Under the pieces are notes generated by a model. The model made no database searches, was not told the DNA's origin, and worked only from the letters and a program-made list of their open reading frames with translations. From a virus, in the IMG/VR virus record IMGVR_UViG_3300033388_003553, positions 7,434-71,433 of that record: a DNA stretch of 64,000 nucleotides; one strand, given 5' to 3'. Numbering within the stretch: the first letter of the stretch is position 1; each line of letters opens with the position of its first letter. Positions 254 through 64,000 of this stretch are shown piece after piece. A program made the translations under genes and the position numbers.

Positions 254-347
254 TGCGTTGGCAAATGTTTTATAACGGTTTGGCTAAACTGCGTTTTAAT
301 GCTGTTTAGGCGGTGTTATGTGTATTTAAAAATTAGAAACAAATAAA

Positions 348-683
348 ATGACAGTAGAAGAATTAAATAGCTCAGAATCTAAGTATATAGACTTTAAAAT
401 TATAAAAGCAGAGTCCAATATGTTTTACAATGAATCAGTAGAACAGTATAGATGGCTTAAGAACAATACAGATACAGGTGAAATAAGTGCAAACATAGAA
501 TCTCTATATCATTACGAAGGGAACCCTTGGTTTTATGCTGTTTTAAAATTACAAGGTGAAGATGTTATTATAGGCCTTAATAGATGTTTTAGCCTAAATA
601 TTCACAAAAATATAGAAGTTGTTTTATATAAACATAAAGGCCTAGAAGTTGTAAGAAGTATAACAAATATTGCTCACTACTAA
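348..683 (+). CDS. Hypothetical cassette protein
   Basis: ORF exactly fills the GTT(315)...AAC(694) segment; A-rich translation start. Confidence 0.7.
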   Translation: MTVEELNSSESKYIDFKIIKAESNMFYNESVEQYRWLKNNTDTGEISANIESLYHYEGNPWFYAVLKLQGEDVIIGLNRCFSLNIHKNIEVVLYKHKGLEVVRSITNIAHY

Positions 684-771
684 TTACACATAACGCTCAG
701 GCTAAACGGTCGTTTTAATGCCGTTTTAGCCATTGTTAGGCTTATGTACGAAACGGATAAATAGTAAAAAG

Positions 772-957
772 ATGGAATACGAATATAGAAATAGAGATTG
801 GGAAATGTGGCTTGAAGGTACAGCAGACAATGAACCCAACAAAAAAGAAATAATTGAACACGCAAAAGGCAAAGGATATAAACTAAATGATATTGAAATT
901 TGGTTTGATAATATGCAAGGCTTTTGGAGGTTTAGTGCTGACTTAGTGAAGTATTAA
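772..957 (+). CDS. Hypothetical cassette protein (MEYEYRNRDW...)
   Basis: Fills GTT(735)...AAC(964); ATG 772 preferred over TTG 733. Confidence 0.65.
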   Translation: MEYEYRNRDWEMWLEGTADNEPNKKEIIEHAKGKGYKLNDIEIWFDNMQGFWRFSADLVKY

Positions 958-1155
958 GCCTAACGTATGTTGCCGATAATTGACCTTTCAAAAGTAAACA
1001 GAGTTGAAGTGATTGATGAAAACGGTAGAAGCTATGTGAATTGGAAACCAACCAATAAAACTTCTATTAGTATGCAAGACGATGGTAAAACGCTCAAAGT
1101 TTTTATAAGCAATTAACCATAACGAATTAGAATATGAATTTTAAAAATTACGTTT

Positions 1156-1338
1156 ATGAGTGATATAAGAAAATTAACAAAGGAACAATTACAAACTGAA
1201 GGAAATGTAATAGGCAAACAACTTAAAGAATGGAATGATATATTTGACTTACTTAGTATGGTTAGAAAATACGAGTTATCTGAATTAGAAGCCTATTGCA
1301 TTTTAAGTAACCGATATAAAGTAGAAGAACGTAAGTAA
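1156..1338 (+). CDS. Hypothetical protein located entirely inside an attC-like hairpin loop
   Basis: Flanked by arm AATATGAATTTTAAAAATTAC (from 1131) and its complement GTAATTTTTATTATTTATATT (from 1335). Confidence 0.65.
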   Translation: MSDIRKLTKEQLQTEGNVIGKQLKEWNDIFDLLSMVRKYELSELEAYCILSNRYKVEERK

Positions 1339-1422
1339 TTTTTATTATTTATATTTTTTGTTACCATTAACGTAGTGGCGTTTTAATGAATGGTAACGTT
1401 GAGGCTAAACACAGTAAATATT

Positions 1423-1617
1423 ATGAGAGAAGAAATAATTGAAATACTTAGAGAAAATTGGCATCATAGCTATAATGATTGTGCAGACGATTTATTGGGT
1501 TTAGGTATTGTTAGCAAAAGTGTTGCGAAACAATACGCTGAATTTTGTGTAATGTGTGACCGAGAAGGATTACCACTACTTGAATTAGATGACTACATTA
1601 AGCAATATTGTTGCTAA
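1423..1617 (+). CDS. Hypothetical cassette protein spanning the GTT junction
   Basis: Starts in the hairpin loop, reads through the right arm (DLLGLGIVSK); stop TAA is part of TAAC 1615-1618. Confidence 0.65.
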   Translation: MREEIIEILRENWHHSYNDCADDLLGLGIVSKSVAKQYAEFCVMCDREGLPLLELDDYIKQYCC

Positions 1618-1687
1618 CGGTTTGAATATGGTGTGTAGCCACCCTAAAAGAGCTACGAAGAATTAAATAATGATTTAAAAATTGAAT

Positions 1688-2011
1688 ATGAATACATTAA
1701 AATTACCTAAATGGCTATACACTATATTTGGTGTTATGCCTCGTTCTTCATCAGAAAATAAAGAAGCAAAGAGAATTAAATCTATGTTCATGATTTATTT
1801 TGACGGGTGCTACATGATAGACCCTGTTGAAGATACCTCAAACACCTTTGCAATGGGTATATGTAAGCTTGAATACAAAAATAACGAACTAACTGTACAC
1901 CTTAGAAGACCAGGTCTTTTAATTGGCAAAGGTGGTCGCATAATTGATGCACTATCTGAACATTTAGAGTGCAAAATAAAAATTGTTGAAGTTAATTTAA
2001 ATGAGGCATAA
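1688..2011 (+). CDS. KH-domain (type II, S3-like) RNA-binding protein in a cassette
   Basis: VHLRRPGLLIGKGGRIIDAL is a GxxG KH motif. Confidence 0.7.
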   Translation: MNTLKLPKWLYTIFGVMPRSSSENKEAKRIKSMFMIYFDGCYMIDPVEDTSNTFAMGICKLEYKNNELTVHLRRPGLLIGKGGRIIDALSEHLECKIKIVEVNLNEA

Positions 2012-2343
2012 CGGAATTGTGTAAGATTAGTATTAACGGATTAAAAATAAAAAAAGTAAATAATTATGGATAAATGTAAATGGAATGTAAAAATATTAAA
2101 CCACTATTTTAGATTGACTGTAGAAAATAGATTTATAATACTTGGATATAGGGGTGAAAATTGGAAAGAGTTAGTTAATATTAATTTTACACTTTGTTAG
2201 CACATCGTTTTAATGTTTGCTAACGGGCTTTGTGTAAACCGTCGTTTTAATGCGGTTTAAACGTTGTTACCCTTAGTGAAATGAAAAAGGGCGTGCCTGC
2301 CCAAGAAAGGCAAATTAAGAGTATTAATATAAAAAAAAAGATT

Positions 2344-2829
2344 ATGCCAAATCACGTATATCAAAAAATAAGAATAGATAATTGGAGTGAAGATAAAGCA
2401 CTTGAAAATCTTAAAGGGAAAATATTTAACGACAAAGGAGAGTTAGATTTCAATAAAATTATACCACAGCCAGACAACATATTTAATGGTGATTTAGGAG
2501 AAGAAGAAAGGCAAATGTGTATTGATAAAGGTATACCAAATTGGTTTGATTGGAATAGAGAGAACTGGAACACAAAATGGAATGCTTACTCTTTTGAGTT
2601 AAATCAGGATGATTCAAATACATTATCCTTTAATTTTCTAACCGCTTGGAATATTCCTGTACCAATAATGAATAAAATATTTGAGTTAGTAAGAGGTTCA
2701 GAAATACAATACTTAGCTATTGATGAGGGATTTCGTTTTGCAGAGAGTGTAAGAGTAGATGAAAAAGGGAACGAAACTCAAAAGGATTTAAAAGAATATT
2801 GTGACGAACTATTATTTGCAATGCTTTAA
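2344..2829 (+). CDS. DUF1281/YubB ferredoxin-like domain protein
   Basis: MPNH start, LDFNKIIP, WFDWNRENWNTKWNA, FLTAW motifs. Confidence 0.7.
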   Translation: MPNHVYQKIRIDNWSEDKALENLKGKIFNDKGELDFNKIIPQPDNIFNGDLGEEERQMCIDKGIPNWFDWNRENWNTKWNAYSFELNQDDSNTLSFNFLTAWNIPVPIMNKIFELVRGSEIQYLAIDEGFRFAESVRVDEKGNETQKDLKEYCDELLFAML

Positions 2830-3281
2830 CCGTATGAGTGGTCGCCCTTTTTTATTTTATTAAGGGTAACGGTTTGAATAAGGGGCGTTTTTAAATGCCC
2901 TTTATTTGTTGTTATATGCTTTTATTTTTGAGCGTTTGAAAAATATTTTTAAAATTTCTTTGTATTTTGTTTGTATATCAAAAGTATTGTAGTATCTTTA
3001 CACCAGAAACAAAAACAAATAGATATGAAACTTACAAAAGAACAACAAGAATTATTTAATACTTTAGTTAGATTAGGAGATTCAAAAGAATTGGCTTTAA
3101 GCACAGTGTTAAGCACTAAAACAGATAAAAACACAGATATTTATCAAACAGCTTACTATTCTTAGTAGGTTGTTAAGTCGTGCCTAAAAGGTCGGGAGCA
3201 GTTATTGTTTCACACCGAATAACATGGTGAAATGCCTAGCGGTCTGCGAAGTGTTATTGCGACTTAATAAATTAAGATTTC

Positions 3282-3674
3282 ATGAAAACAAAGATAAGAA
3301 CAAGTATATTAAACATCCCAAGTATAAAATGGTTGATGATAAAAACAATGCAAATTGATGGTTGCATTTATGTAACTCCATTAGAATTGTATAATTTATT
3401 AGGTTGCCACGGTGGTATGTTCCTAACTGGTAAAGCTAATGATGAAGAAATGAATTTTATTAATGATTTCTATAATCTTAAATCAAATTGGAAAAAACAG
3501 TTGAAAGAAAGTATTGAAGCAGACTTTAAAAAGTTTAAAGAACAGTTAGAAGAAACAATAGTAAGCGAGTTTAAACCTAAAGACGTTGGGGTAGGTGTTA
3601 TTCATTGCATAAGCTGTACTGAACAAGTTGAGAGCCTAGCTCATAAAATTATAAACTTACATGAGAAACTATGA
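3282..3674 (+). CDS. Hypothetical protein
   Basis: ORF track; inside the large cassette 2911-3813. Confidence 0.55.
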   Translation: MKTKIRTSILNIPSIKWLMIKTMQIDGCIYVTPLELYNLLGCHGGMFLTGKANDEEMNFINDFYNLKSNWKKQLKESIEADFKKFKEQLEETIVSEFKPKDVGVGVIHCISCTEQVESLAHKIINLHEKL

Positions 3675-3802
3675 AAATACCCTACCAAATAAGAATTGAC
3701 AATGACCTTTTAGACAAGGTTAAGAAGTCTGCAAAGGATAATGAGAGAAGTGTAAACGCTGAAATACGTTACTTGATTAAGTGTGCGTTGGATAAAAAAT
3801 AA
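3671..3802 (+). CDS. Arc-like ribbon-helix-helix DNA-binding protein (43 aa; not in ORF track)
   Basis: MKIPYQIRIDNDLLDKVKKSAKDNERSVNAEIRYLIKCALDKK; RSxNxEI Arc signature. Confidence 0.75.
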   Translation: MKIPYQIRIDNDLLDKVKKSAKDNERSVNAEIRYLIKCALDKK

Positions 3803-3863
3803 TTGCATATAACTGTATTGTGTATGAAAAGTAACGGATAAATTAACAATAAACTTAATAGAT

Positions 3864-4061
3864 ATGACTAAAATAAAAGTAGAATTACCAAAAGGATTTA
3901 TGAATGTAGGCGTGAGTTTAAGTAATGACTTAATAGCAAATACAAATGATAGTGCAAGATGGGATACTTTAAGGTTTCCATTGCCCAAGCCGACTTATAA
4001 ATGGCAGATACATTCTTACGAAGACGACAATAAAATAGTGAACTTAATTGATAAGCAATAA
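3864..4061 (+). CDS. Hypothetical protein inside an attC-like hairpin loop
   Basis: Arms GTGTATGAAAAGTAAC (3820-3835) / GTTATTTTTTATACAC (4065-4080). Confidence 0.65.
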   Translation: MTKIKVELPKGFMNVGVSLSNDLIANTNDSARWDTLRFPLPKPTYKWQIHSYEDDNKIVNLIDKQ

Positions 4062-4151
4062 GTAGTTATTTTTTATACACGTTGTTGGCATCATTGTTTT
4101 AATATGTGCCAACGTTGCGTGTTTTAAAAACTAACCACAATAAATAAAACA

Positions 4152-4382
4152 ATGACTAAAGACGAAATTAAGCATATAAATTGGATGTACAACAGATTGA
4201 CAAGTGTACATAAAGAAAACCCAAACACTGACTATATGATACGTTTTAAAGAAATAATTGATAAGCAATTAACTTTATGCGGTGTTGTGAGTACGTTTTT
4301 TTGCAAAGATGAGGATTTACAATATTCTTCTAAAAAATGTAAAGAACAATGTAGTGGCTGTAAGTGGATTGAAAACCTTTAG
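4152..4382 (+). CDS. Hypothetical cassette protein spanning the GTT junction
   Basis: QLTLCGVVST encodes the right arm and GTT 4284. Confidence 0.6.
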   Translation: MTKDEIKHINWMYNRLTSVHKENPNTDYMIRFKEIIDKQLTLCGVVSTFFCKDEDLQYSSKKCKEQCSGCKWIENL

Positions 4383-4632
4383 CAAAATAATTACTTACAA
4401 CGTTTTGTGTATGGCACGTTGCACTCACAGAAATTAATTAATAATAAATAAATTAGAAATAATGACAGAAGAAAATAAGAATACGGGAAATGGCAGAAAG
4501 ATAACTGGAAAGATGTTTACTTGTATAGTGATGAGTTTATGATTAGTGAATTTAAAAAAGCTAATTGTGGCTAACGGTTTGTGTATGATTAGTAGCTTGA
4601 ATTAAAAATAAAATTAACGAATAAAATATAAA

Positions 4633-4848
4633 ATGGAAAGACCTAACAGAAAAGACTATATTAACAAAGCTACAAAAATACAATTGATAGCAGACCAAGA
4701 AAGGTACATTGACTTTATAGAAAAGAAATTAAAAGCTATTAATTACACACCTTGTTGTACGGAGTTAAATGCTGATGATAAAAACAAGTATTTTATAAGT
4801 GGGTACAGACAAGGATATGGCGATGCAATGAAAGATAATAAAAAGTAA
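4633..4848 (+). CDS. Hypothetical cassette protein spanning the GTT junction
   Basis: AINYTPCCT encodes the right arm and GTT 4754. Confidence 0.6.
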   Translation: MERPNRKDYINKATKIQLIADQERYIDFIEKKLKAINYTPCCTELNADDKNKYFISGYRQGYGDAMKDNKK

Positions 4849-5351
4849 CATTTTATTACGTACAACTATTATATATCAACCAGTTAATTTAAAATACTGA
4901 TTATGAGCATTAAAGGGAAGGCAACTGTCGATAAATATATTAAAATATTGACAGTTAAAAATTATTAAAGATAAAATTTGATTATAATGAAAACAACAAA
5001 GAAAATAATAATAAGTATAGATATTGAAACTGAACAAGATATAGAGAAAGTATCAGCAGCAGTAAAAAAGGGGTTGTACTACGGATTAGATGTTAAGTGT
5101 GTAGCTGCCCCTAAAGATGTAAAGATTAATTACTGCCAAGAAAGGTAGTATTACACACAACGTTTAATGTATGGGCCGTATGAGGAACGAATACGGCCCA
5201 TACATGGTGTTATAAACAGTTTTTAAAATTATTAAATAAAAAGATATGATAAAATATATACAACAACATATAAACCACATTAAAACGATGGTTTATATTA
5301 AACGTTGTATATATGAAAATAAATTAGTATATTTGTAATTGTTTATAACAA

Positions 5352-12641: not shown

Positions 12642-12731
12642 GTCTCAGTGCTCCGAGTGGTCGAAGGGGGTGGGTTGCAACCCCACCAAAGCGTAGTTGC
12701 TTCATCATAGGTTCGAATCCTATCTGGGACT
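12642..12731 (+). tRNA. tRNA-Cys(GCA) with long variable arm
   Basis: Acceptor GTCTCAG/CTGGGAC, anticodon GTGGG-TT GCA AC-CCCAC, TTCGAAT loop, U73. Confidence 0.8.
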
Positions 12732-12910
12732 CATGAATTGCAAAAAGTTTGTACAAAATGTGGGTAAGAAAATGAAGTGTAGGTGAGATTCTAACTCACC
12801 TACACTTCATACCGCTTCCGACTGGTCGGACTTTTGAATTTATAAACTTAAGGGGTGGATGAAGTCCCATAAGAACTAAAAAGATTAGGTAGACTGCAAG
12901 TCCACCAAAT

Positions 12911-12982
12911 GCTCTGTGGATGTGATGGTCAGCATACTTGTTTTACATACAAGGTGAGAAGGTTCGATTCCTTCACGGAGTA
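12911..12982 (+). tRNA. tRNA-Val(TAC)
   Basis: CTTGT-TT TAC AT-ACAAG; GGTTCGATTCC. Confidence 0.85.
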
Positions 12983-12992
12983 CAACACAAAT

Positions 12993-13066
12993 AGGGGTGT
13001 AGCCGAATTGGTATAGGCAACAAGCTTAGACCTTGAAATCTGTGGGTTCGAATCCCACCACCCCCA
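12993..13066 (+). tRNA. tRNA-Leu(TAG), short variable region
   Basis: CAAG-CT TAG AC-CTTG; GGGTTCGAATCCC. Confidence 0.75.
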
Positions 13067-13079
13067 CTGCCTAAACTTC

Positions 13080-13227
13080 GCTACGTGGAGCATTGGAGAG
13101 TCATGGCAAGGATTTAATTTTAGCGGGTAAGCAACCTAGGAACGTGAGACCCAAGTTTATTAAATTCGACTCAAAGCTCGCTGGGGGCATATCCCAGAGG
13201 CAACAGGTTCGATTCCTGTCGTAGCAA
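13080..13227 (+). ncRNA. tRNA-like RNA with a large insertion in place of the anticodon arm
   Basis: GCTACG/CGTAGC acceptor and ACAGG-TTCGATT-CCTGT T arm. Confidence 0.45.
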
Positions 13228-13238
13228 CAATAATATAT

Positions 13239-13312
13239 TGCGGGGTGGACTGGAGTGGCTCCAGCTGGGTCTCATAAGCCCAATCACGGGGGTTCGAATC
13301 CCCCTCCCGCTA
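13239..13312 (+). tRNA. tRNA-Met(CAT), initiator-like
   Basis: TGGGT-CT CAT AA-GCCCA; unpaired 1:72. Confidence 0.8.
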
Positions 13313-13321
13313 CTAACACAT

Positions 13322-13406
13322 GGCCTTGTGGTGAAATTGGTAAACACAGGGGACTTAAAATCCCCCGCCCATTTAGGGCTTGTCGGTTCGAATCCGACCA
13401 AGGCTA
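13322..13406 (+). tRNA. tRNA-Leu(TAA)
   Basis: GGGGA-CT TAA AA-TCCCC; long variable arm. Confidence 0.9.
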
Positions 13407-13430
13407 CAAAGCACAAGTACTTGTGCTGGA

Positions 13431-13521
13431 TTAGATATGATGGAATTGGTAGACATGACCCCTTAGTCGGGGTGGAGAAAACTTTTGTCACTCCGTGTAG
13501 GTTCGAGTCCTACTATTTAAC
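13431..13521 (+). tRNA. Degenerate Leu-type tRNA (TAG-like)
   Basis: Leu-type D arm GATGGAATTGGTAGACAT, long variable arm and T arm; irregular anticodon loop. Confidence 0.5.
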
Positions 13522-13523
13522 CC

Positions 13524-13607
13524 CCCCAAGTGGTGAAATTGGTAAACACACAACCTTGAGGTGGTTGTGTCCGAAAGGATGTGTGGGTTCGACTCCCACC
13601 TTGGGGA
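13524..13607 (+). tRNA. tRNA-Leu(GAG)
   Basis: CCCCAAG/CTTGGGG; CAACC-TT GAG GT-GGTTG. Confidence 0.9.
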
Positions 13608-16452: not shown

Positions 16453-16460
16453 CAAAACAT

Positions 16461-29530: not shown

Positions 29531-30835
29531 TGCTAATGGTAGGGCTATGTGTAGTGTCGATATTAAAAACTACATACTTAAATAAAGAATTATGAAAACT
29601 AATATAGTAGGAACACCAAAAGGAATAGGAAAAGAGGCATTACATATAGCTGATGTTAGCCAACGTATATTGTCTGATTATACTGATTGGTTAAATGAGC
29701 AAGACCTAACAGTAAATAAAATAAAAACACACGGAGGTTTCAGAAAGTGGTTTGGGCTAGGGTGGTTAAATAAAAAAGTAAGCTCAGAAGATTTAGTAAA
29801 AAAGTTTTTATCTGAATATGGTGGCTAACGATTAGTATATGAAATGTGGAGCAAAGCGGAATTTTTTATATACCGTGTTATGCTCTTTTAAATTTAGAAA
29901 CTATGGGATTTTACATAAATGAAGAAATAGAAACAAAACTTCACTACAAAGATATTACACTAATTACTGTTGCTTTTGGTGACTATATTGAAAAATATGG
30001 TGACAAAATGGATGAAGAACAGAAAACAAGAATGAATAAACTTGTTAATAGGCTTGGGAATGAAATGTATGACCATCCCGACAATGATAAACTGAACAGT
30101 CATTAATTGAGCATAACGGTTTGGGTATGTTTAGTGCCGAATTAATAACACAAAACTTTGAATATTATGACAAACTTTGAAATAGAACTATATGACAATT
30201 ATACAAGATGCTCGGCATTAAATATACCTGATGTTAGCACTCGTTTGTATTACCCGATAATGCACTTAGAAACATTTAAATGGGGTGAATTGATTGAAAT
30301 AGACGATAAAAACATATTAGCAAACATTAATGGTGTTGGAAGATTTAAAGATAAGATTGAAAACTTTTGGACTAAAAATGAGTGCTAACGGTTTGGCTAT
30401 GTGCTGAACGAGGAACGAGTATGGCATATAGCTAGTGTTAGGCATAGTAATATTATTAACAGATAAAATATATAAAAATGGGAATGTATACAGAATTTAT
30501 TATAGATGTGAAATTGAAAGACAGTACACCGAAAGATATTGTTGATTGCGTTAATTGTATGATGGGGGATATAGACAATAATTTATTTACCTATGGAAGA
30601 AACCCTTTAATTAATTATTGTGGGAGCGAAACATTTGAGAAGAGTTTTGAAGACCTACACTTAAAAGCACATGGAGAAATAAAGAACTATTGGAGCGACA
30701 TTGAGAGGTTTGTAGATTTCTTAAAACCATATATTGAAATAGGCTTTGTTGAAGAGGGTGCTTTTGCAAAGTCATTATATAAAGAATGTGAAGAGTGGCA
30801 GCTTTATTATGCCTAACTATTATATATCAACCAGT
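29531..30835 (+). mobile_element. Integron-like cassette array 2 (four cassette ORFs: 29592-29828, 29903-30106, 30167-30388, 30478-30816)
   Basis: GTTAGCCA 29655 / TGGCTAAC 29822; GTTATGCTC 29877 / GAGCATAAC 30109; GTTAGCACTC 30233 / GAGTGCTAAC 30380; GTTAGGCATAGTAA 30437 / TTATTATGCCTAAC 30804. Confidence 0.85.
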
Positions 30836-49763: not shown

Positions 49764-49842
49764 AAGTACTTTACAGTTAAAAAAAAAATCAGTAAGTTAA
49801 TAATAATAATAATAATAATAAATCATTTAAAGGATAATAATA

Positions 49843-51804: not shown

Positions 51805-51970
51805 AACTGAATCTCCAAAGTCCTATGGTCAAACCTATATAGATGATATGGCACTTGGTTATCCATTAATAGATAATGAAGTTGATAGACCATTTGTTGA
51901 TTGTGGATTGAAATAATGTTAGAAGAGCGTGGTGTATTACCACCAATAACAATTGATATAACTAACACAT

Positions 51971-53254
51971 ATGAGTAATACTATAATTAATGACAGACGT
52001 AAAAACCCACCTAATAAATCTGGAGGTAACCGCCAAAGATTTATCAAAAGAGTTGAAGGTCAAATAAAAAAGGCTTTACCTAACGTTATTGATAAGAATG
52101 ATATAAAAGGTATGACATCTAAAAACGGTAAGGTTAAAGTCCCAATTAAGGGGATTAAAGAACCTAGTTTTGGTCACGATAATGATACTGGTGATAAGGG
52201 ATATGTTAGGCCAGGTAATGACCACTTTCAAAAAGGGGATAAAATTAAAAAACCAAAAAAAAGTGGTGGTAAGGGTAGTGGTAAGGGTGCTGGAGATGGG
52301 GAAGACTTTGAAGATGATTTTGTTGTTGAATTAACAAAGGATGAGTTTTTACAATACTTTTTTGAGGATTTGGAATTACCAGATATGTATAAGAAATTTA
52401 TTGAGTCAGTTTCTGATTACAAAATGAAGCGTTCTGGTTTTAGTCCAGTTGGAATTCCAGCTAGATTGAATAAGGAACAATCACTTAAGAAATCCTTAGC
52501 ACGTAAGATTGGAATGGAAGCCTCTTTAAAAAGAAAGTTGAATAAGTTAAAGGATTTATTTGATAATGCTAAAGATGTACATAAAGATGTGATTCAAAGG
52601 CAAATTTATGAGGTTGAAAAGAAACTTAAATCAATCCCATTTATCGATAAGATTGACCTTAGATTTAACAATTTTGTTAAAGAACCAACACCAACAACAT
52701 CAGCCGTTATGTTTTGTCTTATGGATGTTTCGGCATCAATGGGCAAAGAAGAGAAAGATATTGCAAAGAGATTTTTCACACTATTGTATTTGTTCTTAGG
52801 TAAGGAATATGAGAATATTGATTTGGTGTTTATTAGACATACAACTTCTGCGGAAGAAGTATCTGAAGAGGAATTCTTCACAGGTAGAAAAACAGGTGGA
52901 ACTAGGGTTGCTAGTGCACTTGAGTTGATGGATAAGATTATTGATGAACGTTACAGTAATGGTAAATGGAATATATATGGGTGTCAAGCATCCGATGGTG
53001 ATATCTTTGAGGGTGAAGATGATATAAAATCACAATCAATGATGAGTGAAATATTACCTAAGTGTCAGTTTTACGCCTATGTGGAAATTGACAGAAGAGG
53101 TTACTATGGTACTGATATGGGTGGTGGCTTATCTGCCGCTTACGAACCTTTAGTCAGTAGACACCAAAATTTTGTTTCAACAGGTATAAAAGAAATTAAC
53201 GAAATATGGCCAGTATTCCGCAGTCTATTTACTAAATCTGAAAATAAAAAATAA
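51971..53254 (+). CDS. yeaH: YeaH/YhbH (DUF444, vWA) protein
   Basis: NRQRF, PGND.F, MFCLMDVSASM, GGT, QASDGD. Confidence 0.9.
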   Translation: MSNTIINDRRKNPPNKSGGNRQRFIKRVEGQIKKALPNVIDKNDIKGMTSKNGKVKVPIKGIKEPSFGHDNDTGDKGYVRPGNDHFQKGDKIKKPKKSGGKGSGKGAGDGEDFEDDFVVELTKDEFLQYFFEDLELPDMYKKFIESVSDYKMKRSGFSPVGIPARLNKEQSLKKSLARKIGMEASLKRKLNKLKDLFDNAKDVHKDVIQRQIYEVEKKLKSIPFIDKIDLRFNNFVKEPTPTTSAVMFCLMDVSASMGKEEKDIAKRFFTLLYLFLGKEYENIDLVFIRHTTSAEEVSEEEFFTGRKTGGTRVASALELMDKIIDERYSNGKWNIYGCQASDGDIFEGEDDIKSQSMMSEILPKCQFYAYVEIDRRGYYGTDMGGGLSAAYEPLVSRHQNFVSTGIKEINEIWPVFRSLFTKSENKK

Positions 53255-53263
53255 TATAATACT

Positions 53264-53677
53264 ATGGAAGATATTTTAAAAATTGAAATAGACTTGAATA
53301 ATAAATTTAAAAATATGTTAACTAGTCGTAAAAAAGTCAGTAATATATGTAATGTTTTAAGTGGGACACATAGTACTTCTGACACACTCATGTTAACTGG
53401 TGTTAATATTAAGTATGATGATGAGACTGGTTTGATGATTATTAATAATTTAGTAATTAGTAAAATAATATCAAATATTGGTGATATTGCAATTAGGTCT
53501 GGTTTAAACAAAACAAAAAAACTTACAGGAAAAATAATTGTTTCTAAATTATCACTATCACCAAAACAATATTCACTAACTTATGAACCATTTAGGAGTG
53601 TTATGTGTCATTATCGTTATAAATTTGATGAGTGTACACCTAAAAATAATAGAATTAACCCATTAGATAGATATTAA
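53264..53677 (+). CDS. Hypothetical protein inserted in the operon
   Basis: ORF track. Confidence 0.5.
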   Translation: MEDILKIEIDLNNKFKNMLTSRKKVSNICNVLSGTHSTSDTLMLTGVNIKYDDETGLMIINNLVISKIISNIGDIAIRSGLNKTKKLTGKIIVSKLSLSPKQYSLTYEPFRSVMCHYRYKFDECTPKNNRINPLDRY

Positions 53678-53678
53678 T

Positions 53679-55196
53679 ATGAGTAAGAAAAAAAGATACA
53701 TAACTGAGAGTTCTGATTGGACTATTGATACATTAAAAAAATTTGATGAGGTTATTCAAAAGTACGCAAAAGAATATCTAAAACTAGATTGGTACCCAAA
53801 CCAATTCGAAATAGTATCTAGTGAACAGATGTTAGATGCTTACTCTTTAATAGGTTTACCTATCTCTTATCCACATTGGAAATTTGGTAAAGATTTTATG
53901 TCTAATTCGGTTAACTATGAAAAGGGTAGGCAAGGTCTAGCTTATGAGTTAGTGATTAATTCAAACCCGTGTATATCACACAATATGGAAGACAACACCA
54001 CTTGTATGATGGCACTGGTAATTGCTCACGCAGCTTATGGTCACAACTCATTCTTCAAGAACAATTATATGTTTAAAGAATGGACTGATGCTGATAATAT
54101 AATTGAGGATATGGTATATGCTAGAGATTTCATTATTAAATGTGAGGATAAATATGGTATTGAAGTTGTTGAAGAAGTTTTAGACACCTGCCATTCATTA
54201 CAAAGGTTTGGAGTTGATAAAATTAAGCGGCGTAAGAAGAGAACAAAAGTTGATGAAATTGCTAGACGTAAGTTAGTTGCTAAGTTGGAAGATGAAAACT
54301 ACAATATACTTTGGGATACATTACCAAAACATGTTAAAAATAATATTGAATGGTCTAAGATACCAAGTAATAAGGTAGTTGATTTAAAGGAAGATAATAT
54401 ATTGTATTTCTTAGAAAACAACACACCTAATCTACCATTATGGAAAAAAGAAATCATTAGTATTGTTAGGAATATAGGTCAATATTTTTACCCACAGTCA
54501 CAAACAAAAGTGATTAATGAGGGTTGGGCCACATTTACACATTATGCACTTATGAATAAATTGTATGATGAAGGTTATATTAATGAAGGTTTTATGATTG
54601 AGTTTATTAAAAACCATTCTGCTGTTATTTACCAACCCCCTTATGATTCGAAATATTTTTCTGGGATAAATCCATACACAATTGGTTTCAATATTTTTAT
54701 GGACATTAAGCGCATTTGTGAAGAACCAACGGAAGAAGATAAGAGATGGTTTCCAAATTTAATTGGCAAGGATTGGTTAGAAGAGATTACATATGCTATG
54801 GAAAATTTTAGAGATGATAGTTTTATATTACAATACTTATCACCAAAAGTTATTAGGGATATGAAGTTATTTCTAACTGTAGATTTAGAAGAGGATGATG
54901 AAAATTACCATATTGATGCCATACATAATGATAAAGGGTATAAAATTGTTCGAGAGGCATTATACAAACAATATCAACGTAACAACTATACCCCAACAAT
55001 TAGAGTAACTGATGTGGTAACATCCGAAAACAACAAATTAGTGTTAACACACCATGTCGAGGACGGAAAATTGTTAGATGAAGAATCAACACTAGATGTT
55101 TTAGAATTGATGCAAAATATATGGTCATTCCCTATAGAGATAAATTCAAAATTTGAATCTGGTGAAGAAATTAATATTGTAGAACTAGATTACTAA
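53679..55196 (+). CDS. spoVR: SpoVR/YcgB family protein
   Basis: GLP..YPHW.FGK, LAYELVINSNPC, AH..YGHNSFFKNN, QTKVINEGWATF. Confidence 0.95.
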   Translation: MSKKKRYITESSDWTIDTLKKFDEVIQKYAKEYLKLDWYPNQFEIVSSEQMLDAYSLIGLPISYPHWKFGKDFMSNSVNYEKGRQGLAYELVINSNPCISHNMEDNTTCMMALVIAHAAYGHNSFFKNNYMFKEWTDADNIIEDMVYARDFIIKCEDKYGIEVVEEVLDTCHSLQRFGVDKIKRRKKRTKVDEIARRKLVAKLEDENYNILWDTLPKHVKNNIEWSKIPSNKVVDLKEDNILYFLENNTPNLPLWKKEIISIVRNIGQYFYPQSQTKVINEGWATFTHYALMNKLYDEGYINEGFMIEFIKNHSAVIYQPPYDSKYFSGINPYTIGFNIFMDIKRICEEPTEEDKRWFPNLIGKDWLEEITYAMENFRDDSFILQYLSPKVIRDMKLFLTVDLEEDDENYHIDAIHNDKGYKIVREALYKQYQRNNYTPTIRVTDVVTSENNKLVLTHHVEDGKLLDEESTLDVLELMQNIWSFPIEINSKFESGEEINIVELDY

Positions 55197-56809
55197 TAAA
55201 AAATAATTAATAAATATGATGACAGATGGTAAAAAAACTAGTCTGGGGATATTACTTAAGTTATGTCACATAAGGTCATCTAATATATTTAACTTCCCAC
55301 AAAGTGGTTACACCCACAAATCAGGGTGTTTTATAAATAAACCAAAAGTTGGTTGCTCATTTATTATGGTTACTGAAAATGGCCCCTTTGCAACATCTTT
55401 TGTTGTGAAAATTATTGAGGAAGATAAAAATAAAATATTATTTAACACACGTAATTCCACGTACCAATTAAGTATTAATTTATTTGAGGACATTGACTAA
55501 TAAAATTTTAATATAAATTAGGTTTAATGAAAAATATATCATATATTTGTATTAACTTATTAAAATAAATATTTGAAAAATTGAAGACTAGAAGAGATAA
55601 ATTAAAATATAAAATAAAAATAGAGTTGGGTAAACAATTACCTGAGTACGATAATATTATATCAGCAGTTGATATGTATGAAAAAAACAATATAGATGCT
55701 ATTCAAAAATTGAAAAAATCCAAGAAAGTATTTATGAATAACATAAATGGTGCATTGAAACAAACCATCAACGCTCACGGACCTATTACTAAACAACTGA
55801 TTGGTAGCTGTTCTAAGCGTATATACGGAGCTTTAATCATCAACCCCAACCAAGAGCAAAACAATAAAAATAAGACTAAGATTTCAATAAAAAGTGTGGT
55901 AATTGGTATAGTTATAGGTATTACAATCACATTATTGTTGGGTTTAATGTCGTGTGCCTCATTATAAACATTAAACTAAGATTATGAAAAAGACACATAA
56001 AAATGTAAGATTAGATACTAACAACATGGCTGCATGTATGGTTTCTATTCTAGACAGTTTAAAACTGTACGATAAAGGACAATTAGTACTTGAAAACGAG
56101 ACTTTATCTGAGATGATGTTCCGAAAGATGAAAGGATATAATGTTGACCTTAACAAGGAGTTAGGGGTAGACCATTTAAAACCAATCACTAAAAAATGAA
56201 AAGACTACTAGAAATGCTCTTAATTGAGTTAGAAGCTGGCAACATGAATAAAGATTTATGTTCTACTGTTAGAAATATGCATGTATTTCATGGTTTATTT
56301 ACATCACAAGAAGAAGAAGACTTAAGAGTCTATATAAAAGATAACAGACCTGAACCGATTGGTGATGAAAATAATTACGGTTGGTATTGGCCCCCTTATT
56401 TACTAGAACCTAGAATTGAATTTATTAAAAAACACATTAAATTAAATTATGGTACATAAAGATGCAATAGGTAGACCAATAGATGTTAGATTTTACTTAG
56501 GAGGCTTCAACGATAATGTTACTTGTTGTGGGATTTACAGACAAAGAAGTTTCTTTGGTATAAAGTATTTTACTAAAGTTTATTGGGAGGCTTCTGGTTA
56601 TGATTTACATACCGTATCTAAGTGGTTGCAATCTGATTGGGATAAGTTTAAATATAAAACAATAGACGAATATAACCGAACTAAAATACTATATGATATA
56701 GTTTCACATAAAATAATAAAACAGAATGGAAATAATATTTAATCAATATATTGTGGATACTGATGTATTACTATAATAAATAATAGATATTAACTAAAAA
56801 CTCAAGAAA

Positions 56810-57183: not shown

Positions 57184-58086
57184 ATGAATTTAGGATATGC
57201 TTGCATTAATATGACACTTACTAACAGAAAAGGTGATAAAAAAGTTACAACTAATCGTTCAATGATTAAAAGAACCTTCTTAGCTAAAGGTTCTGATTAT
57301 GCTAGTGAGTTGGCATTACTTAATTGTAAAGACTTAATGAAAATCCTAAGATGGAATAACTTAAACAATATAAAAGTGTTCAGATTATCATCTGATTTAT
57401 TTCCATGGGCATCCGAATACAATATTGAAGACTTAAAACACTTCAACCAAATATCTATAGAACTTAAGAGATGTGGTGATTATGCTAAAGATAAAGGTAT
57501 TAGAATAACATCACACCCAGGACCATTCAATGTATTAGTGTCACCTAGAGAAAATGTTGTTAACAATACAATAAAAGACTTAGAAATACATGGTAAAATA
57601 TTTGACTTAATGGGTTTATCAAGAACACCATATAATAAGTTAAACATTCATTGTAATGGTGTTTATGGAGATAAACTAGCAGCTATGGATAGATTCTGTA
57701 GTAATTTCGAAAGATTATCTGATTCAGTTAAAAGTAGGTTGACCGTTGAGAACGATGATAAGGCTAGTATGTATAACGTTAAAGACTTAATGTACATACA
57801 TGAAAGAATAGGAACACCAATCGTATTTGATTATCACCACCATAAGTTTAATACTGGTGATTTGAGTGAAGAAGATGCACTTAATTTAGCCTTAAGCACT
57901 TGGAAAGATGATATTAGACCAATTGTACATTATTCAGAGTCTAAACGATTACATGAGAATGATGATAAGATAAAACCTCAAGCACACTCAGACTATATCA
58001 ATGAATTACCTAACTTATATGGTAATGATGTAGATGTAATGGTGGAAGCAAAAGCTAAAGAATTGTCAATATTAAAATTTATATAA
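57184..58086 (+). CDS. uvsE: UV DNA damage repair endonuclease
   Basis: LGYACIN, FRLSS, HPG.F, RLTVENDDK, FDYHHH, HYSES, AHSD, MVEAKAKE. Confidence 0.95.
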   Translation: MNLGYACINMTLTNRKGDKKVTTNRSMIKRTFLAKGSDYASELALLNCKDLMKILRWNNLNNIKVFRLSSDLFPWASEYNIEDLKHFNQISIELKRCGDYAKDKGIRITSHPGPFNVLVSPRENVVNNTIKDLEIHGKIFDLMGLSRTPYNKLNIHCNGVYGDKLAAMDRFCSNFERLSDSVKSRLTVENDDKASMYNVKDLMYIHERIGTPIVFDYHHHKFNTGDLSEEDALNLALSTWKDDIRPIVHYSESKRLHENDDKIKPQAHSDYINELPNLYGNDVDVMVEAKAKELSILKFI

Positions 58087-60379
58087 TGAAAATAATTGCT
58101 TATATTTGTTGTTATAAAACGTTTAAATAATATAATTATGTGGGAACTTAAAAATAATAAAGAATATGGTGTTATGCACCGTTAATTAATAACTAAAAAA
58201 TGAGTTGGAATCACAGAATATTAGCACACAAAGAAGGAAACGAAATATATTTTCAAATACACGAAGTTTATTATGACAAAGAAGGTAAACCAGATAAATA
58301 TACTGCCAATGGTGTAAGTGTAAGTGCTGAAAGTTTAGACGGGATAAAATGGGTATTAGACAAAATGAAAGAGTGTGCTAATAAGCCAATTCTTTCAGTT
58401 GATGATTTCCCGAATGAGTACAATGGTGCATAACGGTTTGGCTATGCACCGTTTTAATGGTGTATAGGTATTGTTGTAAACTGTACTGGGTTTAAAAAAC
58501 AAAATTATGAAAGAAACACAAAAACAATTAGAGTATATCAGATTTATAGAAGAAGAAACTGGTATTGAGTACAAAGGAAATACAAAAGCAGAAGCAAGTA
58601 AGTATATCTCTGAAAATAAAGATAAAATACCTTACTCTTCTACTATAAATATGTGGGCATTAGTAAAAGGATATTAGTATTGTTTACAACGCCTGAGTAT
58701 GCTCTGTATTGAGCAAAGCGGAATATGGAGTATAATCCATGTTATGATTAGTATGGATTAAATAAAGAGATTATGAAAAGCCCCCTGACAGGAAAACCAA
58801 TGACTCAAATAAGGTCGCTAAAAAAGATTAAAGGAGTTAGGTTTATGTACGTATGCTACTTTTGTAGAGATATGAGAGAAAGATTCACTACCACAGAATT
58901 AGATGAGGCTAATATGTCTCGATATGAAGAACAAAAGAAAAAACAGCAAAAGTAGTATTAATCATAACGGTTTGGCTATGATTAGTAAAATTGAAACACG
59001 AACTATTTAATTATTAACCAACATCGGCTTTTATTAATTATAGCCTTTGTTATAAATTTTATAAAATGGATATACAGAAAGCAATACACTACAAAAAAGA
59101 GCTTGAACAGGATATTAAAAAACTGTTGCAAAATTATTGTGAAGAAACTGGCTTGAAATTTGGTAAAATAGAGATTAGCTCTTTTTATGATATAGAAACC
59201 ATTAAAGGAAAGTATAATATTCAATTAAATGTGAAGAATCCATTTTAATTGTTTATAACGCTCTGTGTATGGTGCGTATGCCGATAGGCTATGCAATATA
59301 CACGTTGTTATGGTTAGTTTAATTAAAAAAAAATAAGATATGCTACAAAAAATAGAAATATATTTAAACATAATTTCTTTTATAGGATGCTTTGCGTTTC
59401 TATTTGGATATTGTTCTTATTTAGGGTTAAAAATGATTTACGTAATGTTTAAGAATTAACCATAACGTTTTGGCTATGCACCGTAAAGCGATAGCGTATG
59501 GTGTATAGGTGGTGTTATAAACTTTAATAATAATTATGGAAATATTAATAAAACCGATGCCTAGTAAAGTACAATGTTTTGAGTACTGGCATAGTAAAAA
59601 ACCTAGTGTGATACTGGTAGAGACAGAAGAAGTAAAAGAAAAGCTATTTAATGCTTTAGTAGAACAAGACGATTACTGGATGTCTTTAAATAAGAAACAT
59701 TTGATAAAAATAGCACCAAAAGAAATAAAAGACTTGAGGGATTTGGATGATATGTGTGAATATGGAGGAAAGACAGATATTTACGATATAGATGTTTTGA
59801 AAGAAAAGTTTGATTTCATAATATATCAAAATCTTAGAGAGCCTTATTGTTTATAACGGTTTGGGTATGGTGACGTTGCACCTTACAGCACGAAATTAAT
59901 TAGTAAATCAAAACTTTAAATTATGAATACAGATGGCAATAAAGACGGAATAAAGCAATGCACTATACCTCTTGTTGTATGTTGTACGGATTAACCTATA
60001 AATTTAATTAAAATGAAAATAGAGATAATTGACAAAGTATTATCCATAACTTATGGTGATAAAAATGTTAAATTTCGATATGATTCTAAATCTTCTGGAA
60101 CATACTTATATTGGGTCAAGGCTAATTATGGGAAGTATAAAAGCGATGAATATAGATTATGGTCGCAGTCCACTCTTACCGCTTTTTTCTTGTCTGATTT
60201 CGAGGAAAGTGTTGATATAATATCGTGGTTTAATAACACACATTAGCCATATTAAATAGAAAAGTTGTGTAGTATTACTTACAACGGTTTGGCTATGCGC
60301 CTGTACTTGTATGGCGTATAGGTGGTGTTACCTGCTGTACGGATTAATAAAAACAAAACTTAAATTAAAAATAGAAATT

Positions 60380-60772
60380 ATGGGAATGTACACAGAACTA
60401 ATATTTGGTGCTGACTTAAAAAAAGACACGCCTAAAAACGTAATTGAAGCCTTAAAATATATGATAGGCGATACCGAAGAAAAGCCTAATGATTTTCCTT
60501 TACCCATTGGTAGATGCGAATGGTTGTTTAGGGGTGCTAGCTACTACTTTGGTGTAAATAGACCTGTTAGTAAAATGTGGTTTGATGACATTAGTGAAAA
60601 TTGGACATTAAGTACCCGAAGTAATATAAAAAACTATGGAAGCGAAATTGAGACTTTTCTAGAGTGGATAAAACCACACATTGATAGTGGTAGTGGTGCA
60701 AAAGATATGTACGCTATTGTGACTTACGAAGAAGCAGAAGCACCAAATATTTATTACCTGCACGAAGATTAG
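60380..60772 (+). CDS. Cassette protein, paralogue of 30478-30816
   Basis: MGMYTE...LK..TPK....IKNY...IE.F...(I/L)KP.I. Confidence 0.7.
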   Translation: MGMYTELIFGADLKKDTPKNVIEALKYMIGDTEEKPNDFPLPIGRCEWLFRGASYYFGVNRPVSKMWFDDISENWTLSTRSNIKNYGSEIETFLEWIKPHIDSGSGAKDMYAIVTYEEAEAPNIYYLHED

Positions 60773-61513
60773 TATTGTAGGTAACGGACGAGTATATGGC
60801 AAGTAGCCAAGACAGAATTAAGTAAATAAACAACAAAATTAATAACAGCAAATAGTACAAAAACAAGCCTAACAGCTATTTGCTATATACCGTGTTATAT
60901 ATCTGGTGGCGTTCTATGAGCTTTCGGTCACAGGAATTAATCACTTGGTGCAACCGCTTAACAAATAAGCGTGGACGGGATTAAGCCACTTGTATATAAC
61001 GCTGTGGGTATGGAAAGTAATTTTACGAATTTGAAAAACTAAACAAGATGAATATACAAAAGATTGAAATAGTGATAAACCAACTTGAAAGAGTTCATAG
61101 AGACATGAATGATTGTGTTAACAGGAGAATTAGTATCTAAAGAGGCATTACATATAGCTGATGTTATACCCTGTTTTTTAGCGTTGGAAAAATAATTTAC
61201 ATAAAAGTGTATTTTTATTTGGTAGTTAATACATAATACTGTATATTTGTAGTATAATAATTAAAACAGTAGAAATAATGACTAAGCAAGAAATTAAATT
61301 AGATTTAGAACAAGCAACATATTCTTATAACCAAAACGACCAATGGGCTTTAGATTTTTGGGAAGAGGCAGTAGAAAAATGCCCAAAATTAGTTGAGAAA
61401 GACTTTAAAGAATTAAATGAATATGTTAAAAACGATAAGGATTTTGGTGATGAGAATGGTTTTGAATTAAACGAAACTTATAAAGAGATTTTCAAGAACC
61501 TAAACCTAAACTA

Positions 61514-61672
61514 ATGAGTAAAGACTTAATAAAATGGAGTGAACTGAGCCGTAAATTAAGTGGTTCAGATAACTCGATAAGACCAAATAAAGTACCTAAA
61601 AAGTACCTAAGAAAAGTAAATCGTTTGCTGTGGATTATCGATTTATGGGAGCGTTGGGCTAATAGGGTATAA
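61514..61672 (+). CDS. Small basic protein, second gene of a self-promoted cassette (not in ORF track)
   Basis: MSKDLIKWSELSRKLSG...; overlaps the stop of 61278-61514; its own stop is part of TAAC. Confidence 0.55.
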   Translation: MSKDLIKWSELSRKLSGSDNSIRPNKVPKKYLRKVNRLLWIIDLWERWANRV

Positions 61673-64000
61673 CGTTAAATATAAAAACTGAAAATATGAA
61701 ATATTTATTGTTTTTATATAGTGTTATAAATTCCGTTTTTGAAAAACCAGAAACAGAGTTTGAACGCTATATGATAGAAGAGCCAAAAGAAGATGTACAT
61801 TCATTTATGATTAATAAATTTCAAAAATGATTTATAACGTTTTAAATATGATTTGTGAGGCACGAATAAAATATATTTAGTGTTATAAGTTTTTATTTTT
61901 AGTGCGTTGGGAAAATAAGTGTAATAGTAAAACAAAAAAAGATTATGAAAAAATTTAATTTAACTGTAACTGATGTAACTAACATCATAGAAGATAGAAA
62001 TAAGGGTGTATATGTTAATGATTTAGCTATAAAATATAACACAACTAACGCAATGGCTACAACTCTGTATAAAGCCTATAACGGTAATACAATTTATTAT
62101 GAAAAATTAGGTGTAGAAGCAAAAAAGGTTTTAGATGAATGTTTAAAATTAAAAAGGAAAAATATAACTAAGCCACAAAAGTATAAGGTTAAAATACTAT
62201 TTGGATTGATTACGCTAAAAATAAACCCAGTAGACGGGTAGGGTAAAAATAATTACTTATAACACCCCTTGTATGGTGGTGTATGGAATGCAATGGAATA
62301 TGCACTATACAAATTGTTGTAGTGCGTTTAATTTAACTATAAAATTATGTACGGATATTTGAAAATAGGAATCTCGGATAAGAAAATGGCTAAACTTATG
62401 TATGCCATACTAATAACCAAAAGTAAGTTAGTAAACTGCCATCACTTAGGGTTAGAAAAATACACAAGAAAGCAGAACTCTGGAAACTGTGTTGATTTGG
62501 TTATTGAATTAAAAGCAGACCAAGTACAAAAATTTGAGGAATTAGCAGAAGTAAAATTGAAAACAAGTGAAGAGTTTCAAGGTAAGATGGTGCTGAACTA
62601 ATGCACTACAACGCTCCTTGTATGGTGCGTTGAACACTAAAGTAAATTGATAACTAAAACTTGGTAATAATGACAGAAGAAAACAAAGAGAAAGAACAAT
62701 GCACTATACAAAATGTTATATGGAGGTGCAATGAGGATATAACAGACTTGTACGGAAATGTTATGTTTACAAAAGGTCTAATATACGAGCAAATTAAAAT
62801 AGACCAATACCCAATGATGCTTATAGATAACAACGTTGAGGAAAGTGAGGTTTACAATCTAAAAGATAGTTTCACTTCCATATAACGGTAAAGAATATGA
62901 GTAGTGGCGGGAATAAGGGTTAACAGTACCGCATACAAACGAGTAACCCCGAAAGACCCGTAGGTTCAGCTCTTAGGTATGTTTTAGCCATTACTTATAT
63001 TTATTGTTAGCTTTTCGTTTTGTGCGAAGGCTATAAAACTTAATTATTATGAAAAGATATGGATTAAAAAATGACCGTCGGGACGATGGTGATAAGTTAA
63101 GCAATACTAATAATGCTGTTAAAAGTAGCATTGCTAGACCTGACGGTAAGGGAGCATTAAGAAGTAGTAAGTTAAAAAGGAGACTTAGGACTGTAATGAA
63201 CAAAAGAAAAAGAACCTTACTAAAAAGAGAATTGAATAGGGCGTTGGCTAATGAAAGCTAACGCTCGGTGTATCATACGTGCGTAAATAACAGGAAATGT
63301 TAATTAAAGGATTGAACTATGAAAAACACAGAAATACCTAAACAAGATAAACACAGTATGGATGATGACACATTGTTAGGCACTGTCATTTGTCCTCATT
63401 GTGGAGAAGAGCATAATTATAGAGAGGTTGTGACTGATAAAATAGACTACATCATCACAGAAAAGGACAGAATTTGTAACAACTGTAATGAATTAATGGA
63501 TTGTTGGGCTTATGGGTACTGGGAAAGTAAAACAGATTGTGCCTAACGGATTACGGCTATGAATTGAAGCCGTATAACAAATGTTCAATTCAAAGAAATA
63601 ACCTTAACAAAGGTTTTTATTTATAGCCATTGTTATAAAACGTTTTATTATGACTTCAAAATTAATTAAAGAACTAAACAGTAGCAGACAATTAATGTCT
63701 GATGTAAGTAGAAAGTTAAACAACCTATCAGAAGAAAATAAAGACCTTCGGGTTATGCTTTGGAGAATGATAGAAAAGCATGGAACGGAAATGAAAGGTG
63801 GTAAAATAGATGATGAAACTTTTGACAAGATATTGTCTGCGAATATTTATGTAGATGATGATTTAAACATACGTTTCTCAAATGTTTTATAACTAAAAAG
63901 TATATGAAAAGTAGGGGTGTGGCTAAAATAATGTTTCAAAATAATAATAGCTGTGTCTTACAGGATAGAATCGGTTTGAACGACATTAGCCCCTATTTTT

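Follow-up and report, generated by a model that had tools for sequence, protein, structure and literature searches.

Putative integron-type cassette arrays without an integrase in a large phage, and sites of the same family beside a tyrosine recombinase in Flavobacteriaceae

Three regions of a phage genome fragment, the linear 71,433-nt IMG/VR record IMGVR_UViG_3300033388_003553 (CheckV completeness estimate 20), consist of small open reading frames (ORFs) separated by hairpin-forming junctions, and these are considered here in a window of 64,000 nt covering bases 7434-71433 of the record. The + strand holds nearly all genes of the window, and the gene set resembles that of a large virulent phage (Pfam on the 90 ORFs that reach 80 aa or more; ARAGORN). 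Within the three regions the repeating unit runs GTTRNNNNNN, a small ORF, NNNNNNYAAC, a 6-nt spacer that is often GGTTTG, a stem-loop, 3-4 nt and then the next GTT (Table 1), and about one fifth of the fragment is made up of small genes held in such integron-style cassettes. The junction form (YAAC, ~6 nt, stem-loop, 3-4 nt, GTT) and the three arrays had been described in an original prediction, made from the letters of the window alone, and both are seen again here, with a count by eye of ~34-36 junctions rather than the ~37 claimed. Array 1 goes on beyond the upstream edge of the window as far as base 1 of the record, and array 3 runs up to the record's other end; as both record ends lie inside arrays, arrays 1 and 3 could be one array.

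A covariance model of the junction was built from 36 short-loop sites (6 in the window, 2 in the record upstream of it and 28 from other viral contigs), in all 36 of which AAC and GTT are invariant, with a Y before the AAC and an R after the GTT. The inner stem covaries, compensatory changes being found in 7 of 16 predicted pairs, and the unpaired spacer separating it from the outer boxes is 6 nt long vs 3-4 nt on the other side. Run on both strands of the whole record (71.5 kb), a check that the original prediction had itself proposed, the model finds 25 sites at E<0.01. The + strand has 24 of them, the window holds 15, and 8 belong to the training sequences; all 25 fall within the three array regions. 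The highest-scoring of these (junction 58428-58479; 67.3 bits, E 5e-14) belongs to the model's training sequences. Specificity was judged on 80 unrelated viral loci (1.36 Mb), collected through UvdE relatives of 68-78% protein identity and without shared neighbour genes in the first 30 of the 80, and there a single match was returned. No Rfam family was found at the junctions, either in the window at the gathering threshold or in the upstream 7.5 kb at E<=1.

Besides the stem inside each junction there is a pairing that spans the genes. The bases following a GTT had been claimed to be complementary to those before the next AAC and not to those before the site's own AAC, and this is borne out: at 19 of 24 + strand sites the GTT-onward bases find an exact complement, 9 nt or longer, that ends in AAC at most 1.5 kb downstream, vs 2 of 24 when the upstream direction is taken and 0 of 24 for the site's own AAC (mean 4.25 nt). 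The reciprocal test gives 16/24 vs 2/24. For sites defined by motif, offset pairing in the two directions of testing is found for 10 and 11 of 17 in the record itself (controls 2 and 1), for 57 and 40 of 97 in viral loci (controls 2 and 2) and for 17 and 13 of 62 in bacterial loci (controls 0 and 2). Chaining of 7-nt inverted repeats was too noisy, and pairs of at least 9 nt were used instead alongside the covariance model; there are 39 exact inverted repeats, taken at maximal length, that reach 9 nt or more, are separated by 100-800 nt and have GTT outermost, against a mean of 8.5 and a maximum of 15 in 20 third-order Markov shuffles. Exact pairing mostly reaches 9-10 nt, longer values including G.T or mismatches. 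The longest pair, 2266-2293 with 2843-2870, which had been singled out beforehand, is Watson-Crick at 25 of 28 positions and its three exceptions are all G.T; the 182-aa ORF that it encloses has Pfam and PHROG matches, to families of unknown function.

The G.T positions are themselves conserved. On the + strand the G after AAC stands opposite the T before GTT, the G of TATG opposite a T of TATAG; a further such pair stands at position 11 of the cassette ends (left GTT-R-N6-G-TTA, right TAA-T-N6-Y-AAC). A first mismatch that is G.T and after which pairing of the cassette ends resumes is found in 13 of 33 of the record's own cassettes and in 84 of 210 viral ones, and one that is A.C or C.A with resumed pairing in none. 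Because the conserved non-Watson-Crick positions are G.T on the + strand, it is this strand that folds better, being more stable than its complement at 22 of 24 sites with DNA parameters and at 23 of 24 with RNA parameters.

The relation of genes to hairpins is not a simple one. Long hairpin loops at 29534-29654 and 62613-62714, as in the long junction of array 2, contain the start of an ORF which then reads through the 3' arm and the GTT, elsewhere an entire ORF lies in a loop, and there are empty cassettes reduced to a hairpin; it follows that a gene or a short loop (often GTTTTAAT) can stand inside either kind of stem. Of 33 cassettes, 11 have an ORF that reaches into the TAA of their closing TAAC. 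PHROG matches were found for 10 of 37 array ORFs, all of unknown function except a ribbon-helix-helix-like ORF, and the phrog_4334 ORFs at 30478-30813 and 60380-60769 make for paralogous cargo in arrays 2 and 3. Arrays 1 and 2 close on a common 21-mer, present in two copies in the window where none is expected (100 shuffles) and without a close copy in the fetched loci, bar one chance-like match with 3 mismatches. The sole - strand site (5258-5310) sits past the end of array 1 in a 141-nt unit, GTTATAAACA...TGTTTATAAC.

Comparison with other phages places some of the breaks in homology on the cores. With the record set against 119 viral loci, 13 of 81 distinct ends of homology blocks (100 nt or longer) come within 3 nt of a core, where 2.2 are expected by chance and 8 was the maximum in 2000 trials. 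The best-resolved exchange is that between two contigs (L062 and L068) whose flanks are both 99% identical and which carry 2034 nt (seven to eight units) in place of 306 nt (one unit); the difference begins after a shared AACG and stops at the AAC of the last unit, where the box differs between the two contigs and in each matches its own partner. These bounds point to a crossover at AAC/G and to a mobile unit composed of a hairpin and its downstream gene. Breakpoints had been anticipated at AAC or GTT, and it is on the AAC cores, not at GTT, that this exchange falls. In two informative cassette pairs the upstream hairpin is shared (0.93 and 0.97) and the downstream one is not (0.20 and 0.35). 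Within the window, blocks running from AAC to AAC, or ended by an AAC, include 2009-2225 and 1112-1346, with ends at 1124, 4401 and 61674. For the gene after array 2 the best full-length match is 35% identical, closer ones being limited to two local stretches of very small size (53% over 30 residues; 78% over 18), too little for array content to be compared in synteny.

The site family is widespread. A 16-mer from the site's 5' half occurs in at least 118 IMG/VR stretches, most with the full structure, and in no fewer than 120 stretches from bacterial genomes, chiefly those of Bacteroidota. Loop families are common to many contigs despite different outer boxes, among them a recurrent hairpin class with the loop GTGAGG(A/C/T)ACGA (L126 1779-1930 and numerous loci of IMG/VR) and another class, from bacterial genomes, with the loop GTCCCGAAGGGCAT. 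The DNA of the window has short matches to Polaribacter, Olleya and Cellulophaga phages (phage database, 1-8000), which point to marine Flavobacteriia as hosts; megablast of 48000-56000 against the phage database gave no match. Positions 691-741 are 94% identical over 51 nt to a site lying between two methyltransferase genes of Polaribacter phage P12002L, and the covariance model finds three sites in that methyltransferase region. For P12002L, Qi et al. 2023 (PMC9892861) report a cluster of attC sites lacking an integrase (CALIN), with two methyltransferases and two attC sites by IntegronFinder/HattCI models, and IntI1 recombined one of its two tested sites into attI1; they count 17 such clusters among 10,705 phage genomes. 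An integron-like reading had been put forward for the window from the outset, and the core boxes, the covarying inner stem, the offset pairing and the position of the P12002L site within a CALIN all agree with it.

As for a recombinase, the original prediction had looked to one outside the stretch, encoded elsewhere in the phage or by the host and of IntI type. No tyrosine, serine or Y1 recombinase was found in the 71-kb record (Pfam including PF00589 and PF01797), and no intI gene lies beside the phage arrays as it would in a complete integron. Among 41 viral records carrying the 16-mer, two encode a tyrosine recombinase, near sites, and these two proteins are 42% and 47% identical to an enzyme found in hosts: in four Flavobacteriaceae genomes (L180/G042, G096, G123 and G073) arrays begin beside a 293-305-aa Xer/IntI-like tyrosine recombinase. 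A candidate outside the record is therefore at hand, next to sites of the same family, and it is not a canonical IntI because the IntI-specific insertion is absent. One of the four is Tenacibaculum sp. SG-28 (L180/G042), where 90.8 kb contain 27 model matches, 24 of them at E<0.001, with scores of 50-62 bits that are level with the phage's own sites, and with arrays at several contig ends that hold one ORF of ~130-400 aa per unit. Two 293-aa recombinases (PF13495 and PF00589), 92% identical to each other, lie at its array borders, and on L332 the first GTT box comes 46 nt past the recombinase stop codon while the partner box closes the first cassette. In three of five further genomes (G096, G123, G073) model matches lie 6-34 kb from the recombinase in matching orientation, and GTT...AAC-flanked single-ORF units are chained from the recombinase gene onward.

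The host recombinase fits NF040815 (204.5 bits, cut-off 220) and the integron integrase model TIGR02249 (200.7 bits in two stretches, cut-off 265) better than XerC or XerD, both scores being below cut-off. Against solved structures it scores equally to a XerA-like protein and to VchIntIA, and has 31 residues where VchIntIA (2a3v) has 74. A subgroup of 'integron-like' recombinases in which the insertion is not fully conserved is noted in a classification paper (PMC8138268). Homologues at E<=1e-40 are present in 77 of 101 sampled Flavobacteriaceae genomes, many at contig ends, and go by generic public names such as 'tyrosine-type recombinase/integrase' or 'XerD'. Most public contigs with close homologues (P0001-P0120) are merely 1-5 kb long, consistent with assemblies breaking at repeated sites beside the gene, and the Tenacibaculum assembly too breaks within its arrays. 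The cargo there (L329-L333, Pfam) includes two beta-lactamase-family ORFs, an erythromycin-esterase-like ORF, SMI1/KNR4 immunity-like and NERD proteins, an AAA_15/DUF4435 protein, a SpoU methylase and DUF7674, which is typical integron-type cargo. IntegronFinder surveys give almost no integrons in Bacteroidetes (PMC9024848). A literature search, with most subscription journals outside its coverage, found no Bacteroidota integron-like arrays with a recombinase of this kind.

Overall the reading favoured here, to which a probability of roughly 0.6 is given, is that the three regions are integron-type arrays without an integrase (CALIN), that their sites belong to a family peculiar to Bacteroidota and the phages of these, and that their units are exchanged by a recombinase of the Xer/IntI-like type. 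Each site would act as a folded single strand with outer boxes ...YAAC/GTTR..., a 6-nt/3-4-nt spacer and the covarying inner stem. The infected host, or the phage itself in a few cases, would provide the recombinase, which would exchange units at the AAC beside GGTTTG on the folded + strand, the mobile unit probably being a hairpin with its downstream gene. Arrays may grow at the end bearing the shared 21-mer AAC/TATTATATATCAACCAGT, and the phage would in this way gather and reshuffle small accessory genes of unknown function; excision of units is putative. Orientation needs a correction to what was first supposed, as the cassette genes are on the other strand from the site in hosts and on the site's own strand in the phage, so that cargo polarity in the phage is reversed relative to the host. 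If the host layout is taken as the classical one, the AAC beside GGTTTG would be the counterpart of the classical G/TT crossover and the better-folding + strand that of the recombining bottom strand, and the phage cargo is then the reversed one, with the 21-mer of the array ends at the position of a primary site. The usual attC arrangement, a hairpin moving with its upstream gene and a crossover at G/TT, is not what the phage units have, unless the strand opposite the phage genes is taken as the top, as in hosts.

A number of observations weigh against this reading. Among 22 viral records at least 90% complete and carrying sites, 21 are without a tyrosine recombinase, and as the record studied is a fragment (CheckV estimate 20) a phage recombinase elsewhere in its genome is possible. 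In two of the further host genomes (G103 and G069) no sites were seen adjacent to the recombinase, the homologues at E<=1e-40 may include housekeeping Xer proteins, and the insertion which the host enzyme lacks is called essential for integron function in PMC8138268. Homology breaks at GTT as well, namely at 60326, at 61162 (two contigs), at 4114 (against Olleya phage Harreka_1), at 29658 and at -1368, and hence hairpin and cassette also combine independently of each other, contrary to the prediction from a single crossover point. Among 120 sequences there are two collinear indel pairs and one clean replacement, the second pair (L088/L123) having its bounds at start codons and not at cores. 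ORFs within hairpin loops or across the GTT are unusual for attC sites, and the P12002L site matched by 688-741 may or may not be the one that IntI1 recombined.

The junctions could also be RNA elements and nothing else, intercistronic hairpins that stabilise, process or terminate transcripts, with the gene-spanning pairing closing each message and no site-specific recombination. That the better-folding strand with its conserved G.U-type pairs is the sense strand in the phage, and that the hairpins come after stop codons, with the ORF entering the TAA of TAAC as counted above, would fit such elements. In hosts, though, the elements are antisense to the cassette ORFs, so that host messages carry the weaker strand, and an RNA function does not account for their clustering beside a tyrosine recombinase, for breakpoints on cores or for the recombination of a related site by IntI1. 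Intrinsic terminators (a G+C-rich hairpin with a T run) number 4 vs 1.8 expected in array 3, only 1-2 of them at its ~16 junctions, and with no Rfam family to assign, a purely RNA role is judged improbable, at about the same level as the proposal that the units are moved by some unrecognised phage enzyme, such as a homing-type nuclease or the product of one of the many ORFs without known function, and that the host recombinase has nothing to do with the phage arrays. The record does encode GIY-YIG, HNH and T5orf172 nucleases, the phage cargo is opposite in polarity to that of hosts, and breakpoints on the GTT side exist, all of which would suit such an enzyme. Those nucleases lie outside the arrays (Pfam), phage and host sites are one family by score, and two phages encode, near sites of this kind, a protein homologous to the host recombinase, all of which speaks against the proposal.

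Slightly less improbable, and still unlikely, is that the hairpin modules serve as patches of homology for general phage/host homologous recombination with no dedicated recombinase, a role reportedly proposed for the promoter-stem-loop (PeSL) cassettes of T4-type phages. Identical modules do recur in many contigs with differing flanks, hairpins and cassettes are both exchanged, and most site-bearing phages have no recombinase. Patches of homology leave unexplained the pairing of unique 9-10-nt boxes across genes, the stop of homology at AACG before unrelated modules (61163-61673) and the start of host arrays at the recombinase gene. The hairpins might finally be selfish miniature elements, REP/RAYT or IS200/IS605-derived, inserted between genes, being short structured repeats found in many genomes after a fixed tetranucleotide, TAAC; the record has no Y1 transposase (PF01797), the hairpins' own flanks are unpaired (0/24) while flanks across genes are paired, and the arrays are ordered and stand beside a tyrosine recombinase, which makes this origin very improbable. 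An inversion system, with cassettes flanked by inverted repeats, was rejected because all cassette genes of an array are co-oriented.

Taking the arrays as integron-type, their resemblance to attC sites lies in the inverted outer core boxes RYYYAAC ... GTTRRRY, the inner palindrome with an unpaired spacer and the offset complementarity, with the difference that sequence is here also partly conserved (GGTTTGGCTATG), unlike in most attC sites. In Vibrio-type sedentary chromosomal integrons (PMC8618304, PMC9024848) attC sites are likewise conserved in sequence, and these integrons also share with the present system long arrays, one gene per unit, lineage-similar sites and a tyrosine recombinase at one end of the host array; the recombinase here differs in being co-directional with the cassette genes and not divergent, and in being ~300 aa long without the IntI insertion, and ORFs here are found within hairpin loops too. 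From IntI proper the host enzyme is set apart both by the missing insertion and by falling below the TIGR02249 cut-off. PeSL mobile cassettes occur in T4-type phages and have in common with the arrays the small accessory genes of large virulent phages, repeated structured intergenic modules and plastic regions, whereas sigma-70-like promoters are not enriched here (26 found vs 32.6 expected), unique boxes pair across genes, and in hosts the family goes together with a site-specific recombinase. The Xer-dependent dif modules found on Acinetobacter plasmids use fixed 28-bp duplex sites and are similar in that units bounded by inverted recombinase sites are exchanged between replicons by a Xer-like recombinase; unlike dif sites the boxes here vary in sequence yet keep pairing, which indicates recognition of structure. 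With the P12002L CALIN the arrays share integrase-less attC-type sites between co-oriented genes in a virulent phage of marine Flavobacteriia. The difference is one of scale and of cargo, two sites being reported there vs ~35 in 64 kb here (at least 25 model matches in 71.5 kb), and that paper views the sites as bacterial integron components carried by phages while the cargo here is phage-type (PMC9892861).

Integrase-less attC clusters in virulent phages are thus already in print (PMC9892861). What is new is the scale, the platform shared with hosts and its non-canonical recombinase, the unit bounded on the AAC side, the reversal of the cargo and the presence of genes in hairpin loops. A broader proposal, held tentatively and at somewhat less than even odds, is that these features belong to an undescribed integron-like platform common to Bacteroidota and their phages, in which a short Xer/IntI-like recombinase without the IntI insertion would act on a conserved family of strand-asymmetric sites, and large integrase-less arrays of virulent phages would carry genes in hairpin and gene-spanning stems alike. 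Under that proposal the phage cargo, being opposite to the host cargo, would make the recombining strand the coding strand, and as some genes straddle the crossover, N- and C-terminal parts of proteins could also be shuffled.

Table 1. Coordinates of the arrays and of individual sites and cassettes (positions in the window)
Feature	Position	Strand	Remarks
Array 1	1..4884	+	~13-14 junctions; one small + strand ORF per unit
Array 1, model matches	270-321, 688-741, 2218-2272, 2864-2917		10 further matches in the 7.4 kb upstream (L007)
Array 2	29531..30835	+	Four junctions and a terminal AAC; junction 1 has AAT instead of AAC
Array 2, model matches	29823-29883, 30383-30443		
Array 3	58104..63893	+	16-17 consecutive junctions directly after the UvdE gene (57184-58086), up to the record end
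Array 3, model matches			Nine, E<0.02
Top-scoring junction	58428..58479	+	YAAC, GGTTTG, stem GCTATGCACC/GGTGTATAGGT, loop GTTTTAAT, ATT, GTTG
Junction akin to the P12002L site	688..741	+	46.1 bits; outside the training set
Cassette with longest terminal pairing	2266..2870	+	28 nt around a 182-aa ORF (2281-2829)
Cassette GTTATACCCT...AGGGTATAAC	61163..61673	+	Ends common to four other viral contigs; homology ends at TGTT and AACG
Long junction	30118..30232	+	Loop contains the start of ORF 30167-30388, which reads through the 3' arm and GTT
Junction with entire 60-aa ORF (1156-1338) in loop	1124..1359	+	Homology to L019 over 1112-1346
Empty-cassette hairpin GTTACCATT...AATGGTAAC	1360-1397	+	Directly after junction 1124-1359
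Further empty hairpins	2196-2224, 4084-4113		
Terminal AAC of array 1, then TATTATATATCAACCAGT	4864..4884	+	Candidate primary (attI-like) site
Second copy of the 21-mer AAC + TATTATATATCAACCAGT	30815..30835	+	End of array 2
Outlying site pair past the end of array 1	5155-5215 and 5258-5310	+ and -	Span 5155..5349

Some stretches of the arrays might encode small RNAs in place of proteins, these being a 104-nt cassette without an ORF (60897-61000), a G+C-rich structured stretch in a hairpin loop (62886-63005) and a G+C-rich intergenic stretch (3166-3281) in the cassette 2911-3813; none of the three has an Rfam match at gathering scores. Outside the arrays Pfam names PrkA/DUF444/SpoVR, DHFR, dCMP deaminase, Thg1, an ECF-type sigma factor, an Acb1-like protein and UvdE. 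The PrkA kinase, DUF444 and SpoVR genes form a trio at 49843-55196, such a trio normally being a bacterial operon linked to stress or sporulation, and the ORF at 37835-38395 has a weak but above-cut-off match to anti-CBASS Acb1 and the 2'-5' RNA ligase fold. ARAGORN predicts 23 tRNA genes in four clusters (12642-13608, 16381-16841, 17582-17863 and 26693-29086), including 3 tRNA-Pro(tgg), 3 tRNA-Glu and one prediction with a two-base anticodon (13431-13523), and a GIY-YIG/NUMOD3 homing endonuclease (16892-17506) lies between tRNA clusters.

The prevailing view is that integrons are nearly absent from Bacteroidota and that attC clusters in phages are rare and small by-products. The occurrence of one site family both in phage arrays and beside a host recombinase suggests that phages and their hosts share a gene-shuffling system, and if the integron-type reading is true a common marine phylum and its virulent phages would have a single system of cassette exchange between them, one that standard integron finders would miss because its recombinase is without the IntI signature. 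It would account for the large blocks of small accessory genes, likely early or counter-defence ones, and would let genes pass directly between the arrays of phages and those of hosts. The recombination of folded DNA by recognition of its structure could then be studied with a second and simpler recombinase.

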